Below, piece after piece: positions 30,557-36,930 of a stretch of DNA of 51,483 nt. This stretch comes from Nanobdellota archaeon (lineage in GTDB: Archaea; Nanobdellota; Nanobdellia; Woesearchaeales; WJIZ01): contig JAGLMD010000020.1 of the NCBI GenBank assembly GCA_023140175.1, forward strand, positions 1-51,483, read 5' to 3'. The stretch's first letter is position 1. Each line of letters starts with the position of its first letter. A model generated the notes under the pieces. The model was given only the letters and a program-made list of their open reading frames with translations. It was not told the DNA's origin and did not search any database. A program made the translations under genes and the position numbers.

Positions 30557-30567
30557 ACATTTATATA
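30557..30567 (+). promoter_or_regulatory. TATA box (ACATTTATATA) of the RHH-RHH-envelope protein-ATPase operon
   Basis: TTTATATA lies at 30560-30567, about 80 nt upstream of the ATG at 30645. It has the same ACATTTATATA core as the promoter at 23619-23628. Confidence 0.55.
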
Positions 30568-30600
30568 TAATAATTAATCAACAACTTCAGATTAAAGTGA

Positions 30601-30639
30601 ATACATAAAGAATACAATACACATACATAAAGAATACAA
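30601..30639 (+). promoter_or_regulatory. Two perfect 17-nt direct repeats (ATACATAAAGAATACAA) in the operon leader, candidate operator
   Basis: Copies lie at 30601-30617 and 30623-30639, a 22-nt period of about two helical turns. They sit between the TATA box and the first RHH start codon. Confidence 0.5.
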
Positions 30640-34000: not shown

Positions 34001-34640
34001 TATGCCAATGGAAAAATATGTTTATTATGTTAACAAAGAAATACCTTTAGACAAAATTAAAGAAATAAAATCAGTTTTAATAGCAAATGATATTGACGAA
34101 AAAACCATGATAACGGGTTTCGCTGTTTTTGGAGGCCTGCCGGGAAATCTAGTTCAGACAAGCAATATGAGGTTGATCATAGAGATTCTGATAATCATCA
34201 TATTGATTATTATCTACGTTGCATTTACAAGTGATTTAAGGAAATTAAAATATTTTATAACTGACAGAACAACATTAAAGAACATAAAAGAAGTAAATCA
34301 AACTGTTGATAAAGCACTAGTTGATTTACAGAACAACCAATATGAGAAAGCAAAAGCGCTTTATAAGAACACCAATACAACATTCAAGCAGCTGCCAGAA
34401 GATATGAGAAAAGACGCGTATAAAAAGATAACACATCTATCTGGTAAATTAAATGTTTTCCACATCAATAAGTTGATTGATAAGGCTTTCTTCAGCCTGG
34501 AAAACCACCAGGTCGCAGCAGCATCTTCAGCATACAAACATGTTAACAAAATCTATAAAGTTATAGCTCCAAGGTATAAATCCAATGTTTTGGAGAGATG
34601 TAATGAATTATATAAAAAATTAAATGAGCAGAAAAAATAA
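31071..34640 (+). CDS. Large bitopic envelope protein: signal peptide, beta-sandwich and PKD domains outside, TM helix, ~130-aa helical cytoplasmic tail
   Basis: 1,189 aa. Signal peptide FIFITLLAFILLPQIGKS. Cys-rich motif CTDGVQNGDETSIDCGGSCEEC. PKD-like stretch FNWRFDDGSTSTQTNPKHTYNQNKTYTVNLTITWNG. CarboxypepD_reg-like stretch IIIEVENEDGRDIENAEVEFDD...GTYDFTVSKENYIEY. TM helix MRLIIEILIIIILIIIYVAF lies near residue ~1030 and is followed by a helical tail. Confidence 0.85.
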   Translation: MNKKTFIFITLLAFILLPQIGKSDLSKTISIELEYKSSTNWDLDNNGIESNKAAIDFTVEDTKFSWDADESKLCTRWEIYSIENEQSGLICYGNKKCCNFIDLEPEMPNWNNILYIPYQKYGTSRNNKVSATVIYVDYSLDPNNLYSDIYYSELDYLYAVYLEENLEESIPKKWIVIKTSSENSPKINFTIISPNNKTSLIKGEDVYLNFTLNITVMASYSLNSGNYVPLGLNNSFSSKLNGSLPFDVIGNGRHNLTIYLMDNLSDIINYTYSFTVNDTLAPDIYVNVDGIELNNSIVNRENHTIVINIISDEYSSISYKLNDDEYQNTNLDENKSVSINAELQDGKNNLTININDMQGNSRLLEYGFNFELLPTCTDGVQNGDETSIDCGGSCEECIPFDVSLEKYTFDLGETVEVTILARANSAVDLKVLFNGNVIDSEYIPSYSPDFPIYITKTINNIDEEGNYEIQAAMYYMNTSENKVLSFYVNDPAPQNPLSVSIKANTTSIKEGEAIEFGAAISGNTSAASFNWRFDDGSTSTQTNPKHTYNQNKTYTVNLTITWNGWTKTDKETITVKEPFKIIIEVENEDGRDIENAEVEFDDIKKNTSSDGKASFIIAAGTYDFTVSKENYIEYSNSTKITENKTIRVKLTEYETYYGYDNKEPAITLSGPADNEKINQEKVTINYKVLDSSAVNCTLYINIDEGWWVEKAYEKNITEDSEISFVIDDLENKHYQWKIECVDKYGNSQVSETRNFNVSNTNIITTNQGISIDEAINKIGISISNLVYLERNEKEASDALKLKELLEKSIKNLERAKRDLNNIKWRKLNETKTEELRLSIIDRIENIKRSTPNTIKVIETKEFVGYPDKEDVRNISLHVLESENKKYKKREKEEYVSYNQELQNLISITTKSKAIEVGYISGETGRITLIEKEINIKESSEDLSLVESIPKAIAANTSCINALFDYAVILEDPMIRLNMPMEKYVYYVNKEIPLDKIKEIKSVLIANDIDEKTMITGFAVFGGLPGNLVQTSNMRLIIEILIIIILIIIYVAFTSDLRKLKYFITDRTTLKNIKEVNQTVDKALVDLQNNQYEKAKALYKNTNTTFKQLPEDMRKDAYKKITHLSGKLNVFHINKLIDKAFFSLENHQVAAASSAYKHVNKIYKVIAPRYKSNVLERCNELYKKLNEQKK

Positions 34641-36930
34641 AAAAATTGAGGTGATAGTCACTGTATATTTGGCCTTAGTCCTAGTTATAGCTGTTTATTC
34701 TGCCGATAATGCATTTGGCCAAATAAAAACAAGTGAGTATGAAATAGCGGTGAATAGTATTAATGAACTGCTAAAATTAGGAAATTTTAAAGAACGTGTC
34801 TTTACTCTAAAAAATAAAAAATCCGAGGCAATTGGTGTAACTTTCTTTTTAGAGGGAAATATAACAGAAACCATTAGGCTTAGCAGCGAAAGGATTAATA
34901 TAGAGCCAAAAGCTGAACAAAGAATAAACATCACTATTTTCGGAGATAAAGTGGGTGCATATAAAGGTAAATTAATCCTCAATGGAGATATTAATGAAGA
35001 AATACCTGTCAGTATCATTGTATCTGAAGAAGGCATGCCCGTAGATGCAATAATTATGGAAGTTCAGCCTCTGAAAAAAAAGTTCTATATTGGCGAACCT
35101 GTTAGAATTAAAATTGATATCCAGAACTTATTAAATGAAGAACCATATAATGTTACATTTCATTATTCTATTGGAAAGTTTATACGCAAAAGCAAAGAAT
35201 TGAACGCTTCCTTTGAGAATGTGACTGAAGATATGATTATAGATACATCTCTAACCCTGATAAAGGAGTTTGATATCCCGAAGGAAACTGCAAAGGGAGA
35301 GTATATGATTAACGTTAAAGCAGAATATCTCGGCTTAACTACTCAAAAAGGAATCAGATTTTCTATAGGTGAAAAACTGATGGACTATCTTATTTTTGGT
35401 CTTTTACCGCTAAAAAAGTTAATATTATGGTCGCTCAGCATTATCCCAATAGTTGGCCTTTTTATATACTTTAAAAAACGAAAAGAAAAGAAGAAGAGAT
35501 ACAAAAGTGATATTGAATTCTCACTATTGCCAAAGGCTGGCCCAAGGTCTGTGATAATAGGAAAAATTGCTGAAACTGAGAAGACTGCTTATTTTGACAT
35601 TGACCAGCTAACAATACATACACTTATAGCTGGCTCAACAGGGGGAGGAAAAACAGTTTCAGCCGAAGTATTAATTGAAGAAGTACTGATGAAAGATGCT
35701 GCTGTTATCATATTTGATCCGACAGCACAATGGAGCGGCTTTCTAAGAAAATGCCAAAATAAAAAGATGTTAGACCTTTATTCTCAGTTCAGCATGAAGA
35801 AAACAGAAGCTAAAGCATTTAATGGAAATGTACATCAGGTCCTAAATGCGAGACAAATAATTGATATTAAGAAATTTATGATGCCTGGAGAGATTCATGT
35901 CTTCGCCACTAACAAGCTAGATCCAAAAGATATGGATATCCTCGTCTCGAATACAATAAGGGAGATATTTCATGCTAACTTACCTGAAGCAGCCGAATTA
36001 AAACTGATGGTAATATTTGATGAGGTCCACAGGCTATTGCCAAAATTTGGAGGATCCGGCCAGGGCTTTATCCAGATAGAAAGAGGTGCAAGAGAATTCA
36101 GAAAATGGGGAGTGGGACTAATGCTGATAAGTCAGGTACTGACAGATTTTATTGGCTCCACAAAAGCAAACATCAACACAGAGATCCAGATGAGAACCCG
36201 TGATCAGGGCGATTTGGACAGAATCAAAAATAAATATGGTAGTTATATGCTTCAATCCTTGCTTAAATCCGCCACTGGAACCGGGATGATAGAGAATTCT
36301 GCTTACAATAGGGGAAATCCTTTCTTTGTAACATTCAGGCCATTATTGCATGAGCACGCAAGACTAACAGATGAAGAACTTGAAAACTATAATAAGTACA
36401 ATGAAGTAATAGAAGATTTAGAATACCAGATAGAGCAATTAGAAAAAGAAAACATAGATGTATTTGATCTTAAATTAGAGCTTAAGATGGCTCTTGACAA
36501 AGTTAAATCCGGAAGCTTCAATATGGTTGATATTTATCTTGAAGGCCTCAAGCCAAGAGTAGAAGAAGCATGGAAAAAGATGGGAAAGCAGCCTAAGAAG
36601 AGAGAGATTAAGCTAGTAGAGGATGTAGAGCTCCAAAGAGAGTTCGAAGAGGCAAAAAGGGCAAGAGAGGCTACTGGAGAAAAAGAGATAAGCAGTCCGA
36701 TAGGAGCCCAAAAAAACAAATTACCCCCATTAAAACTCAAAGCAGGAGTAACTGTAAACAGTGTTACAGAACTAATCGATTCAATTAACACAATGGAAGA
36801 GGAAGCTGCCAAAGCAGAAAAAGAAGATTTTGCAAAATGGGTGGAACAGATTAATCCAAGCGTAGCAGAAGCAGTGGCCAAAGCAGAATCAAAAGAAGAC
36901 ATAATCATAGCGCTGGAAAAAGCGCAGTAA
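34624..36930 (+). CDS. Membrane-embedded HerA/DUF87-like (FtsK-HerA superfamily) P-loop ATPase with extracellular N-terminal domain
   Basis: 768 aa.
- N-terminal hydrophobic segment: IEVIVTVYLALVLVIAVYSADNAFG.
- About 230 aa of beta-rich sequence, two CARDB-like halves.
- Second TM region: LIFGLLPLKKLILWSLSIIPIVGLFIYFKKRKEKKKR.
- Walker A: IAGSTGGGKTV.
- IIFDPTAQW.
- Walker B: MVIFDEVHRLLP.
- REFRKWGVGLMLISQ and NTEIQMRT, which together match the HerA/DUF87 motif order.
- A coiled-coil, acidic C-terminal tail.
- Overlaps the upstream gene by 17 nt. Confidence 0.8.
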   Translation: MSRKNKKIEVIVTVYLALVLVIAVYSADNAFGQIKTSEYEIAVNSINELLKLGNFKERVFTLKNKKSEAIGVTFFLEGNITETIRLSSERINIEPKAEQRINITIFGDKVGAYKGKLILNGDINEEIPVSIIVSEEGMPVDAIIMEVQPLKKKFYIGEPVRIKIDIQNLLNEEPYNVTFHYSIGKFIRKSKELNASFENVTEDMIIDTSLTLIKEFDIPKETAKGEYMINVKAEYLGLTTQKGIRFSIGEKLMDYLIFGLLPLKKLILWSLSIIPIVGLFIYFKKRKEKKKRYKSDIEFSLLPKAGPRSVIIGKIAETEKTAYFDIDQLTIHTLIAGSTGGGKTVSAEVLIEEVLMKDAAVIIFDPTAQWSGFLRKCQNKKMLDLYSQFSMKKTEAKAFNGNVHQVLNARQIIDIKKFMMPGEIHVFATNKLDPKDMDILVSNTIREIFHANLPEAAELKLMVIFDEVHRLLPKFGGSGQGFIQIERGAREFRKWGVGLMLISQVLTDFIGSTKANINTEIQMRTRDQGDLDRIKNKYGSYMLQSLLKSATGTGMIENSAYNRGNPFFVTFRPLLHEHARLTDEELENYNKYNEVIEDLEYQIEQLEKENIDVFDLKLELKMALDKVKSGSFNMVDIYLEGLKPRVEEAWKKMGKQPKKREIKLVEDVELQREFEEAKRAREATGEKEISSPIGAQKNKLPPLKLKAGVTVNSVTELIDSINTMEEEAAKAEKEDFAKWVEQINPSVAEAVAKAESKEDIIIALEKAQ

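Follow-up and report, generated by a model that had tools for sequence, protein, structure and literature searches.

What might an archaeal cell do with a HerA-type ATPase that is anchored in the membrane and carries an extracellular domain? The window analysed here, a 51,483-nt stretch of DNA from a tiny-celled archaeon of the DPANN group, encodes such a protein at the end of a four-gene operon that a preliminary description had proposed as a trans-envelope translocation module. The presence of a new envelope machine in this archaeon is well supported, unlike its substrate. We infer that it translocates DNA or some other polymer across the envelope, probably dsDNA; the movement of DNA would be the least certain part of the explanation that we favour. 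We found no description of this machine in the literature; it is common in the DPANN group and apparently undescribed until now.

A conserved operon and its leader

ORF calling yielded four overlapping forward-strand frames at 30645-30797, 30790-31074, 31071-34640 and 34624-36930, with products of 50, 94, 1189 and 768 aa. They encode, in this order, RHH1, RHH2, a PKD/Ig protein (denoted BIG) and the ATPase, and span 30645-36930. The junctions overlap by 8, 4 (ATGA) and 17 nt, exactly as described before, and back the earlier claim of one translationally coupled operon. Synteny was counted over the 48 related DPANN loci in which sufficient sequence was available 5' of the ATPase gene; related loci numbered 79 in all. 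RHH1, RHH2 and BIG stand directly 5' of the ATPase gene on the same strand in 41 of the 48 informative loci, which establishes the synteny of the quartet across relatives; because the arrangement recurs in dozens of species, it is not due to chance. BIG is found directly 5' of the ATPase in 42 of these 48 loci, RHH1 upstream of the ATPase in 53 of the 79, and RHH2 in 52 of the 79. The module is cellular and not mobile, since an adenylate kinase gene is conserved in the operon flank, no relatives occur on 2.9 million viral contigs, and plasmid matches are at most 26% identical and represent generic DUF87 proteins. Chromosomal synteny is stable across at least 40 species. The operon of this DPANN archaeon is conserved, chromosomal and vertically inherited.

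The TATA box announced ahead of the operon corresponds to a TATA-like element, TTTATATATA, read directly from the sequence at 30560-30569 (forward strand), ∼85 nt 5' of the first start codon; in orthologous loci, RHH1 is preceded by an element of much the same kind, (A)AGATTTATA(T/A)A. Between the box and the start codon lies a conserved operator-like array (30602-30638, forward strand) of four TACA motifs, which start at 30602, 30613, 30624 and 30635 in an exact 11-nt phase, equal to one helical turn. The array contains two identical direct copies of a 17-nt sequence (30601-30617 and 30623-30639; 22 nt from start to start). These repeats had been reported as tandem; the copies lie 5 nt apart and so are not strictly tandem, and are better read as the phased TACA array. 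The pattern TACA-N7-TACA-N7-TACA occurs at a single place in the window, the RHH1 leader, with 0 occurrences expected by chance. Across 53 loci, 60 TACA pairs spaced by 11 nt were observed versus a shuffle mean of 0.26; pairs spaced by 22 and 33 nt numbered 30 and 11. The phased pattern was present in 31 of the 79 loci, nearly always just 5' of RHH1.

RHH1 (30645-30797, forward strand), a ribbon-helix-helix DNA-binding protein and the presumed autoregulator of the operon, matches Pfam RHH_1 above cut-off (E 4e-8). RHH2 (30790-31074, forward strand) consists of an RHH core (residues ∼6-43) and a charged helical C-terminal extension, and is a paralogue of RHH1 (BLASTP, 38% identity, E 1e-6). Among NCBIfam models, both proteins score best with that of CdrS, which regulates cell division in haloarchaea (E 9e-8 and 32 bits for RHH1; E 1.6e-8 for RHH2). 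As the scores of 32-34 bits compare with a 100-bit cut-off, we regard this as generic RHH similarity. RHH1 and RHH2 may bind the phased TACA array cooperatively, by which the operon would be self-regulated. The RHH proteins are fully accounted for as transcriptional autoregulators, and no contact with the substrate is required.

The ATPase and its surface partners

The membrane-embedded ATPase (34624-36930, forward strand; 768 aa) comprises an N-terminal part with a signal/anchor segment (residues 8-26), two conserved Ig/ASH-like domains (39-249) and a TM helix (263-290), and a cytoplasmic part in which the RecA-like core (309-571) is followed by a conserved helical domain (583-690) and, at the C-terminus, by a small domain resembling DUF5752 (700-765). 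The TM helix lies ∼45 residues N-terminal of the P-loop. The full set of Walker A, Walker B and HerA/DUF87-type motifs read earlier was recovered: GSTGGGKT (337-344), IFDEVH (464-469), REFRKWGVGLMLISQ (490-504, with REFRKWG at 490-496) and NTEIQMRT (518-525), all largely invariant among 75 homologues. Hydropathy places hydrophobic segments at 8-26 and ∼256-283, followed by the positive-inside signal KKRKEKKKR, and the AF2 model (pLDDT 85.7) agrees with a bitopic topology.

BIG (31071-34640, forward strand), a 1,189-aa bitopic surface protein according to Pfam PKD_4, hydropathy and AF2 (pLDDT 78.6), begins with a signal peptide (1-23) and about nine beta-sandwich domains (28-757), of which residues 504-575 match PKD_4 (E 2e-12). 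Next come a helical bundle with an alpha/beta domain (760-1005) and the TM helix (1031-1053), beyond which the cytoplasmic tail forms six helices (1057-1188); hydropathy marks segments 5-23 and 1035-1053. Structural matches of BIG are limited to generic Ig-chain folds. Hydropathy and the AF2 models thus bear out the TM segments, the ectodomains and the shared bitopic topology that the preliminary description had assigned to both large proteins. Its proposal of an ATPase physically wired to an extracellular domain likewise stands after family scans, a PDB profile search, AF2 and Foldseek.

The ATPase matches the Pfam DUF87/HerA central domain (E 8e-12), and its best PDB profile match is Sulfolobus HerA (4d2i, E 5e-9), with iifDEvhrLL aligned to AVIEEAHVFL and raarefRKWGVGLiLisQ to RIAREGRKFGVGLTIVSQ. 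Every ATPase-type match among the 50 Foldseek matches listed is HerA, and the PADLOC HerA and mad8 models match the protein. More than 700 homologues were found (373 representatives at E<=1e-30); the ATPase core is 45-75% identical across ∼370 cluster representatives, and the hypervariable ectodomain ranges from ∼250 to >5,600 aa. In relatives the two Ig-like domains are extended by 1,000 to >5,000 residues, and the same architecture recurs in proteins that measure from 750 to 6,253 aa, in all of which the ATPase occupies the C-terminal end. The ATPase represents a sharply bounded HerA-clade family, which clusters neither with ordinary cytoplasmic HerA nor with known conjugative families. Sulfolobus HerA gives the best matches both in sequence and in fold, and the family is distinct from FtsK, VirB4, T4CP, CedB and EssC.

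A profile of the BIG tail matches the extreme C-termini of at least 13 ATPase paralogues that lack a BIG gene. In these paralogues the tail is fused to the ATPase, a fusion/fission link between the two proteins. A comparable relation is seen for up250, a 250-aa N-terminally anchored surface protein (27713-28465, forward strand; second copy at 24664-25413), whose profile matches the N-terminal ectodomain of 62 of 64 long-form ATPases (E 1e-13 to 1e-22). It is a free-standing copy of their distal-tip domain (residues ∼40-230). In L056 the up250 gene separates BIG from the ATPase, and in L003, L005 and L017 it is found directly 3' of the ATPase; in the window, the up250 proteins, encoded upstream of the operon, belong to the module. 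On the other side, dn555 (37170-38837, reverse strand), a 555-aa bitopic surface protein by hydropathy (signal peptide, C-terminal TM helix and poly-Lys) without a match in Pfam, is a loosely linked operon neighbour in the closest relatives. Of the 10 loci with dn555, most, among them the nearest relatives L001, L002, L004 and L016, have it adjoining the ATPase gene, on one strand or the other.

The quartet holds, but the module had been drawn too small: extra genes belong to it in the window, and in other lineages it takes in giant secreted proteins, KaiC-like ATPases, a coiled-coil protein and proteins resembling DUF5752. Of these, the last three kinds, seen in most other lineages, are all missing from the 51-kb window. 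As previously stated, neither NurA nor FlaI/PilB nor conjugation partners occur in the window, and the same is true of the 79 related loci. One Altiarchaeota relative encodes NurA in the same operon as the ATPase orthologue, a link seen at this single locus and absent from the 79 Woesearchaeota loci and from 9 further metagenome loci found with the same query. The occurrence of the ATPase family in proteins labelled Altiarchaeota, whose best-known members are free-living, weakens the earlier suggestion that the device would be attractive for a host-attached episymbiont.

The substrate of the motor

Our preferred reading, to which we assign a probability of about 40%, is that a ring motor of the HerA clade moves dsDNA across the cytoplasmic membrane, taking it up from a contacted cell or the environment or delivering it there. 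The ATPase hexamer would sit under the membrane, and the REFRKWG arginine would serve as a trans finger like that of HerA. A stalk crossing the surface layer would be built from six ectodomain arms and six TM helices, or twelve should the N-terminal segment stay uncleaved as an anchor; BIG would dock on the ring via its tail, adding an arm of ∼1,000 aa, and separate up250 would provide the tip domain, which in long forms is present in cis. The combination of a conserved core and hypervariable ectodomains fits a universal substrate. RHH proteins in both paralogous system types and the NurA gene in the Altiarchaeota operon were also counted in favour of DNA. Against it, the NurA link is confined to one locus, autoregulation is a full explanation for the RHH proteins, no channel-forming polytopic membrane protein analogous to CedA or ComEC is conserved next to the ATPase, and six to eighteen single TM helices offer no obvious DNA conduit. 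Moreover, giant secreted glycoproteins and KaiC-like ATPases, as recurrent neighbours or fusion partners, speak for regulation and the biology of surface structures no less than for DNA.

The motor might instead be a base or assembly device that anchors, bundles, exports or remodels giant glycosylated adhesin-like arms, fused to it or encoded next door (BIG, up250, the 5,266-aa protein), for attachment to surfaces or partner cells, its substrate being protein and not DNA. This is less likely. In its favour, 51 of the best 150 family representatives measure at least 1,900 aa with the ATPase C-terminal, P0226 (6,253 aa) is rich in NxS/T sequons, and the up250 tip domain is fused in some cases and separate in others. 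Around the operon, 16590-28465 and 37170-38837 encode Ig-like surface proteins, and many long-form loci carry, 5-7 kb 3' of the ATPase, giant secreted proteins homologous to the 5,266-aa ORF of the window (down to E 1e-93). All these surface proteins, however, have ordinary N-terminal signal sequences and so need no dedicated ATPase to cross the membrane. We know of no HerA-clade ATPase that acts on protein, every characterised member, to our knowledge, acting on DNA; no small WXG-like substrates or chaperones are conserved, and the ectodomains that the motor would service are variable, in contrast to its extremely conserved cytoplasmic core. Less probable still is a transmembrane switch or signalling scaffold in which the ectodomain senses contact, the ATPase ring makes up a regulated cytoplasmic hub together with DUF5752-like adaptors, inactivated KaiC/DUF835 modules and KaiC-like ATPases, and nothing crosses the membrane. 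Its appeal lies in short-form loci where the ATPase is followed by as many as three tandem KaiC-like ATPases (Pfam KaiC, E 1e-58 and 1e-61), in DUF5752-like domains, which occur at the C-terminus of the ATPase, on small proteins encoded downstream and joined to KaiC-like domains, and in DUF835, CBS-DUF835 and inactive KaiC-like proteins in the NurA-encoding Altiarchaeota operon. By eye, the region C-terminal of the ATPase in P0199 looks DUF835-like. A catalytic HerA core that is conserved in full and includes an arginine finger is, however, typical of a processive ring translocase and not of a switch, and the KaiC, DUF835 and DUF5752 partners, being missing from the window, are accessory and not core.

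A membrane-anchored FtsK-HerA superfamily ATPase at a conserved, vertically inherited chromosomal locus, next to RHH proteins with CdrS as best model (aCcr1 is also listed), could also suggest that DPANN archaea use it as an FtsK-like pump for the chromosome or for cell division, controlled by CdrS-like RHH regulators of the cell cycle. We consider this improbable given the sub-threshold CdrS scores, a Pfam FtsK_SpoIIIE match below threshold (19.3 versus 24 bits), several ATPase paralogues per genome, some in tandem (L009, L013, L014, L022), and no linked ftsZ, sepF or cdv genes; hypervariable glycosylated ectodomains would be unexpected in a divisome part. Least credible is a role in HerA-based antiviral defence or in a mobile element, for conjugation or viral packaging. 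The PADLOC mad8 match (E 1e-18), several defence HerA models, weak PHROGs matches to a terminase and an FtsK-like family, and Pfam TrwB_AAD_bind just over its cut-off (23.5 bits) are limited to the P-loop core common to these families. Genes for an effector (Sir2, DUF4297 or another nuclease), a relaxase, VirB4, an integrase or a capsid are absent from the neighbourhood, and the viral-contig, plasmid and synteny results given above speak against mobility.

Comparison with known motors

For the preferred dsDNA motor we propose a functional likeness to two pumps made of one protein each, Streptomyces TraB and Thermus TdtA, which illustrate that a HerA/FtsK-type hexamer associated with the membrane is able, on its own, to carry dsDNA from cell to cell (PMC5365140). 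A similar functional likeness is proposed to CedB of Sulfolobales, although the ATPase family itself is not CedB. With HerA the family shares the catalytic core, but it does so without a HAS barrel and without a NurA partner.

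A conserved chromosomal operon headed by two RHH genes

The four genes of the operon lie on the + strand and overlap at each junction, by 8, 4 and 17 nt. They encode two ribbon-helix-helix proteins, RHH1 (30645-30797, +, 50 aa) and RHH2 (30790-31074, +, 94 aa), the bitopic Ig/PKD surface protein BIG (31071-34640, +, 1,189 aa) and the membrane HerA-type protein denoted ATPase (34624-36930, +, 768 aa). The ORF listing thus bears out the run of overlapping same-strand ORFs noted in the preliminary description. The window is AT-rich (G+C ∼33%), archaeal Pelota/aRF1-type and prefoldin proteins are found among its products, and the sequences closest to its proteins carry the labels Woesearchaeota or Nanoarchaeota; the window is therefore part of a DPANN archaeal chromosome. 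Neither Rfam, at gathering thresholds, nor ARAGORN yielded matches in the window.

To determine how far the operon is conserved, 79 related loci were searched by tblastn with the window's proteins. RHH1 was detected in 53 of the 79, RHH2 in 52 and BIG in 64, upstream of the ATPase gene and in the same strand and order, except in L072, where a BIG-like gene lies on the strand opposite the ATPase. A locus was counted as informative if its sequence extends at least 5.5 kb beyond the ATPase ORF on the upstream side; of 48 such loci, 41 contain all three upstream genes, and the synteny of the quartet, raised in the preliminary description as a check, is thereby confirmed. Most of the exceptions are either second paralogues in genomes that also possess a complete quartet (L031, L038, L022, L066) or long-form ATPases with a small RHH gene of their own in front. 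An adenylate kinase gene and another gene are kept upstream on the opposite strand in 13-15 loci, which argues for vertical, chromosomal inheritance. A viral or proviral origin was rejected (no relatives in 2.9 million viral contigs), as was membership of a known conjugative plasmid family: only nine plasmid matches were obtained, at most 26% identical and all predicted to be non-mobilisable. The operon is therefore of chromosomal origin.

RHH1 matches RHH_1 (PF01402) with an E-value of 4e-8 (33.3 bits against a cut-off of 20.5 bits), which places it among the RHH/CopG DNA-binding proteins. RHH2 is a paralogue of RHH1 (BLASTP E 1e-6) and matches RHH models, the Pfam RHH_8 score of 16.9 lying below the 25.4-bit cut-off. 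The CdrS model NF058555 is the top NCBIfam match for both proteins, at 32.0 and 34.4 bits against a cut-off of 100 bits. We rejected an identity with CdrS on these scores and on the lack of an ftsZ2 operon context; no linked ftsZ gene was seen in the window or in the conserved neighbour clusters that were inspected at the related loci. The likeness to CdrS/CdrL and aCcr1 lies in small RHH proteins, sometimes in tandem, that head an operon under their control. The targets of those regulators are ftsZ2 or cdv, whereas the genes regulated here would be BIG and the ATPase.

The leader contains a TACA-N7-TACA-N7-TACA array (30602-30638) that occurs once in the window, with none expected, and has a conserved TATA-like element on its 5' side and the start codon on its 3' side. 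The 17-nt leader repeat of the preliminary description is real, but it forms part of this more specific 11-nt phased array. Upstream of RHH1 in 53 loci, 60 TACA pairs are spaced by 11 nt (shuffle mean 0.26, maximum 2), 30 by 22 nt and 11 by 33 nt, and the triple pattern is present in 31 of the 79 loci, nearly always immediately 5' of RHH1. The array is accordingly operator-like and phased. Since motif phasing at one turn suits cooperative RHH binding, RHH1 and RHH2 probably autoregulate the operon; we found no description of an 11-nt phased TACA operator for CdrS/CdrL or aCcr1. ATPase paralogues without BIG (L010, L022, L035, L045, L049) have their own upstream RHH gene of 49-64 aa, and several of these are preceded by a repeated GTATGTAGTTAT-like motif in place of the 11-nt phased TACA array.

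A membrane-bound ATPase with a HerA-type core

Hydropathy analysis of the ATPase revealed an N-terminal hydrophobic segment at residues 8-26, which at ∼19 residues is long for a signal peptide (signal/anchor), and a second at ∼256-283 that is followed by KKRKEKKKR, giving one or two TM segments per subunit. In the AlphaFold2 monomer model (75-sequence alignment, pLDDT 85.7), a helix (3-30) is followed by two beta-sandwich domains (39-249) and then by a long TM helix (263-290). The RecA-like core (309-571) comes next, and after it three to four long conserved helices (583-690) and a small DUF5752-like C-terminal domain (700-765). For both ATPase and BIG, hydropathy and the models agree with the topology of N-terminal signal, beta-sandwich ectodomain, TM helix and cytoplasmic part read earlier from the sequence. 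Foldseek matched the ATPase ectodomain to ASH/SPD-2 and RbmA-type tandem sandwiches; for the core, every ATPase-type match among the 50 matches listed was a HerA.

The central domain was recognized by Pfam as DUF87/HerA (E 8e-12), and the HerA_C, AAA_10, TrwB, FtsK, TraD, VirB4 and Ced models matched more weakly and over the P-loop only. In a search of PDB sequences with the ATPase-family profile, Sulfolobus HerA (4d2i) ranked first with an E-value of 5e-9, followed by further HerAs. The DEVH Walker B motif aligns with EEAH of HerA, and the strand REFRKWGVGL..SQ aligns with REGRKFGVGL..SQ; the HerA arginine at the corresponding position is reportedly a trans-acting finger, to which the arginine of REFRKWG would be equivalent. 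The four Walker and HerA motifs quoted in the preliminary description are all found in the ATPase, and they show little variation across alignments of 16 and 75 homologues. The best PADLOC models were mad8 and defence HerAs. On the strength of the PDB ranking, the aligned motifs and the HerA-type PADLOC matches, we assign the family to the HerA clade by its catalytic core.

Two classical HerA features are nevertheless lacking in the family, the HAS barrel and the NurA partner. Only ∼45 residues, with just two short strands (309-315 and 321-325), separate the TM helix (263-290) from the P-loop (337), leaving no room for a HAS barrel, and no HAS-barrel family was returned by the Pfam scan of the ATPase at E≤0.1. 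A nuclease partner (NurA, Sir2/DUF4297) was found in the ATPase operon neither in the window nor in the 79 related loci, and VirB4 and relaxase genes are likewise missing from the vicinity of the ATPase in these sequences. The earlier statement that NurA and conjugation partners are absent thus stands for the window and the 79 loci; one Altiarchaeota relative (L080) does have NurA. There, a single overlapping operon (5688-14017 of JBHOSM010000002.1) encodes TM-DUF835, CBS-DUF835, the TM-ATPase, two coiled-coil proteins, an inactive KaiC-like protein and NurA (PF09376); its ATPase relative of 980 aa has the same signal-Ig-TM-core layout and 44% core identity. With the L080 NurA as query, no further NurA was found in any locus or in the window, and a metagenome scan for relatives of the NurA-linked locus recovered nine loci, none with NurA.

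Assignment to other described systems was considered and rejected in each case. A defence system is not supported, as the PADLOC matches cover the core only and an effector is absent. For a type IV coupling protein (TrwB/VirD4/TraD), the TrwB_AAD_bind match is confined to residues 328-369, i.e. 42 residues around the P-loop corresponding to positions 13-54 of a 387-position profile. The scores of the TraD models (16-34 bits) fall far short of their cut-offs (366-648), and VirB4 and relaxase are not nearby. An FtsK/SpoIIIE protein is disfavoured by a sub-threshold PF01580 match (19.3 against 24 bits, 45 residues covered), by the presence of one or two TM segments where FtsK has a polytopic N-terminal domain, and by a DUF5752-like C-terminal domain where FtsK has a gamma winged-helix domain. 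The Ced ATPase model NF053655 gave 31 bits against a cut-off of 600, over the P-loop region only, and the conserved neighbours of the ATPase in the window and related loci include no polytopic membrane protein, as would be needed for a CedA-type partner (CedA/A1/A2) of CedB. A type VII EssC/EccC motor is at odds with the single P-loop domain, an EccCb score of 11 bits and the lack of conserved small WXG-like genes near the ATPase.

Matches to the full-length ATPase comprise more than 700 clusters (90% identity), in forms of ∼770 aa and ∼1,300 aa, and a relative is encoded by at least 552 stretches in a one-genome-per-species collection. When residues 295-660 (the core) were used in an exhaustive search, 373 representatives of 50% identity clusters were obtained at E≤1e-30, 530 at ≤1e-10 and 1,120 at ≤1e-3. 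Core identity among the best 150 representatives ranges from 44-77%. Total length in the family varies from ∼750 to 6,253 aa, the ATPase is always C-terminal, and 51 of the best 150 exceed 1,900 aa. Two such representatives, P0226 (6,253 aa) and P0192 (3,000 aa), have giant, NxS/T-rich ectodomains and share the same end, consisting of two membrane-proximal sandwiches, TM helix, core and helical domain. Named members belong to Woesearchaeota, Pacearchaeota, Aenigmarchaeota and Altiarchaeota, and the names given to the proteins in databases are only "DUF87 domain-containing", "HerA-like" or "PKD domain-containing". Many contigs with a Woesearchaeota-type locus (L004, L008, L012, L020 and others) are titled 'uncultured Methanosarcinales archaeon' and one 'Saccharibacteria bacterium'; these titles look like mislabelled bins.

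Partners of the ATPase and the wider module

BIG contains a PKD_4 domain at residues 504-575 (47.2 bits against a cut-off of 27 bits) and, with a signal segment (5-23) and one strong C-terminal TM segment (1035-1053) followed by basic residues, has the make-up of a PKD-domain surface protein. Its AlphaFold2 model (pLDDT 78.6) comprises approximately nine beta-sandwiches, a helical bundle, an alpha/beta domain, the TM helix and a six-helix cytoplasmic tail; Foldseek returned generic Ig-chain matches only.

The relations of this tail, and of the 250-aa surface protein up250 encoded upstream of the operon (27713-28465, +; paralogue at 24664-25413, +), link both proteins to the ATPase by fusion. 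A profile of the BIG tail matches the extreme C-termini of long ATPase paralogues that have no adjacent BIG (E 1e-10 to 1e-4; L010, L013, L014, L022, L025, L031, L038, L045, L046, L049, L059, L066), and also small downstream proteins. The up250 profile matches residues ∼40-230 in 62 of 64 long-form ATPases. In L056 the up250 gene lies between BIG and the ATPase gene, and in L003, L005 and L017 a cassette of HTH, up250 and the neighbour gene c12 is located directly 3' of the ATPase. These fusion and fission relations argue for a cytoplasmic contact between the BIG tail and the ATPase, and for up250 as a detached distal tip of the extracellular arm of the ATPase.

Further genes accompany the ATPase in other lineages. 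Most long-form loci encode, downstream of the ATPase, proteins carrying the same DUF5752-like domain as the ATPase C-terminus (pattern NGxxI..L....F..HVNxxKNDFxxW), and also a coiled-coil protein of ∼360 aa, a winged-helix-like protein and a giant secreted protein. A KaiC-like ATPase is also found downstream, and in some cases (noted in L028 and L060) it is joined to the DUF5752-like domain known from the ATPase C-terminus. In short-form loci of another clade, a CBS membrane protein gene lies 5' of the ATPase, and genes for a small membrane protein and three KaiC-like ATPases lie 3'. In L007, L008, L011, L012, L015 and L045, as many as three KaiC-like genes (Pfam KaiC, E 1e-58 to 1e-61) stand in tandem behind the short-form ATPase gene. 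The KaiC, DUF5752, coiled-coil and CBS partners of these lineages were searched for in the window and are absent from it.

The operon of the window belongs to a surface-protein island of ∼38 kb. A giant ORF of 5,266 aa (731-16531, +) starts with a signal sequence, is otherwise free of TM segments and has ∼7 NxS/T sequons per 100 aa. It is homologous to the giants of 1,500-2,700 aa that many long-form loci encode 5-7 kb 3' of the ATPase (E down to 1e-93), as well as to ectodomains of giants fused to the ATPase (P0263, E 2e-53). The adjoining run on the + strand within 16590-23211 encodes an 837-aa He_PIG/Big_9 Ig protein, proteins of 590 and 382 aa for which no Pfam family was found at E≤0.001, and a 394-aa bitopic protein (22027-23211, +) that is conserved near the module in L003, L005 and L061. 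A duplicated cassette of HTH (219/212 aa, weak HTH_20) and up250 (249/250 aa) genes occupies 23695-28465 (+) and includes a secreted 318-aa protein (25686-26642, +); it is this HTH-up250-c12 cassette that recurs 3' of the ATPase in L003, L005 and L017. Relaxed Pfam scans of up250, c12, the neighbour gene c20, the 555-aa bitopic surface protein encoded downstream on the - strand (dn555) and other neighbours gave nothing usable. The AT-rich spacer between the convergent ATPase and dn555 genes contains a G+C-rich hairpin (37034-37083, +; -17.9 kcal/mol, z-score -3.5 against shuffles), for which neither an Rfam match nor DNA-level conservation in the related loci was found. A 223-aa ORF at 38969-39640 (-) carries a zinc-metalloprotease-like HEMLH motif and matches no Pfam family even at E≤1.

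Proposed function and comparison with known systems

We propose that the ATPase would assemble into a hexameric ring on which BIG would dock from the inside, with the RHH proteins adjusting expression of their own operon. The complete reading is that DPANN archaea and Altiarchaeota possess an unrecognised class of envelope machine without a homologous described system, in which a HerA-type hexamer acts as motor and is covalently linked across the membrane to extracellular arms of between two Ig domains and >5,600 residues, is joined by a bitopic Ig/PKD partner, and serves contact-dependent transfer of DNA, or of another macromolecule, between the small cell and other cells. We consider this tentative, at a probability of roughly 0.3. 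If correct, the system would represent the archaeal, single-membrane equivalent of machinery for conjugation or competence. Our confidence in a real, conserved membrane machine of BIG and ATPase under RHH control is considerably higher than in its being a DNA pump.

The substrate is the least certain element. We favour dsDNA, at somewhat less than even odds, because every characterised HerA-clade enzyme known to us acts on DNA, because the core is conserved as for a universal substrate while the outside varies freely, because both types of system keep RHH proteins and because one orthologue (L080) retains NurA. A further reason is that TraB and TdtA show a lone membrane-associated ring of this superfamily to be able to move dsDNA between cells (PMC5365140). 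Against dsDNA, the recurrent giant glycoproteins and KaiC-like partners suit a role of the motor in surface structures or in signalling equally well; a conserved polytopic channel protein, moreover, is absent, and the link to NurA is a single case. The rationale that such a device would suit a host-attached episymbiont is weakened by the occurrence of the ATPase family in proteins labelled Altiarchaeota. DPANN genomes are very small, and for the exchange of DNA, nucleotides and other material between these cells and their partners the operon provides a concrete, widespread and strongly conserved candidate. It also offers experimental handles in the soluble part of the ATPase, a defined operator and defined partner domains.

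The nearest relative, by profile (E 5e-9) and by fold, is the archaeal end-resection helicase HerA of the HerA-NurA system (Sulfolobus solfataricus, PDB 4D2I). The two share Walker A, a D/E-E-x-H Walker B, the arginine-finger strand RE(G/F)RK(F/W)GVGL..SQ and N..I.(M/L)R. HerA has a HAS barrel and NurA, whereas the operon described here has neither. Unlike HerA, the ATPase is embedded in the membrane, its core being preceded by a signal/anchor, two Ig domains and a TM helix. It also differs in what follows the core, namely an additional conserved helical domain and the DUF5752-like C-terminal domain, and in having RHH proteins and a bitopic Ig/PKD protein as partners.

CedB, the proposed motor of crenarchaeal DNA import (Ced), is likewise an archaeal, membrane-anchored, HerA/VirB4-like ATPase; the ATPase has no CedA-like polytopic protein or CedA1/A2 nearby, and we know of no large Ig ectodomain in CedB. 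Type IV coupling proteins (TrwB/VirD4/TraD) and EssC/EccC resemble the ATPase in their topology logic, in which a membrane anchor at the N-terminus precedes a cytoplasmic FtsK/HerA-superfamily ring that supplies an envelope machine with substrate, and EssC works alongside large bitopic or ectodomain partners. The ATPase differs from them in its single ATPase domain and in lacking FHA and all-alpha domains, and no T4SS or T7SS genes or substrates are present.

For the proposed mechanism, Streptomyces TraB and TdtA of Thermus thermophilus would offer the best functional analogy. As described in PMC5365140, each is a lone, membrane-associated hexameric ring of the FtsK/HerA superfamily that moves dsDNA between cells without a full T4SS, and TdtA was modelled on HerA 4D2I. 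Their likeness to the ATPase family is confined here to the superfamily core. TraB and TdtA are encoded by plasmids or ICEs, TdtA with NurA and restriction-modification neighbours and TraB with a C-terminal DNA-recognition domain for clt repeats, whereas the family described here is chromosomal and has large ectodomains and BIG as partner.

Our literature search, of incomplete coverage and hence no proof of absence, found no description of the ATPase family, the operon or giant ATPase-terminated surface proteins. The superfamily of the motor is already known, and a membrane-anchored ring ATPase with envelope partners follows a familiar logic; what has no described counterpart is a HerA ring covalently joined to ectodomains that reach >5,600 residues, together with its set of partners. 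Giant surface proteins that end in a cytoplasmic ring ATPase are an unprecedented architecture in the FtsK-HerA superfamily and, whichever substrate applies, would widen the known roles of its motors.
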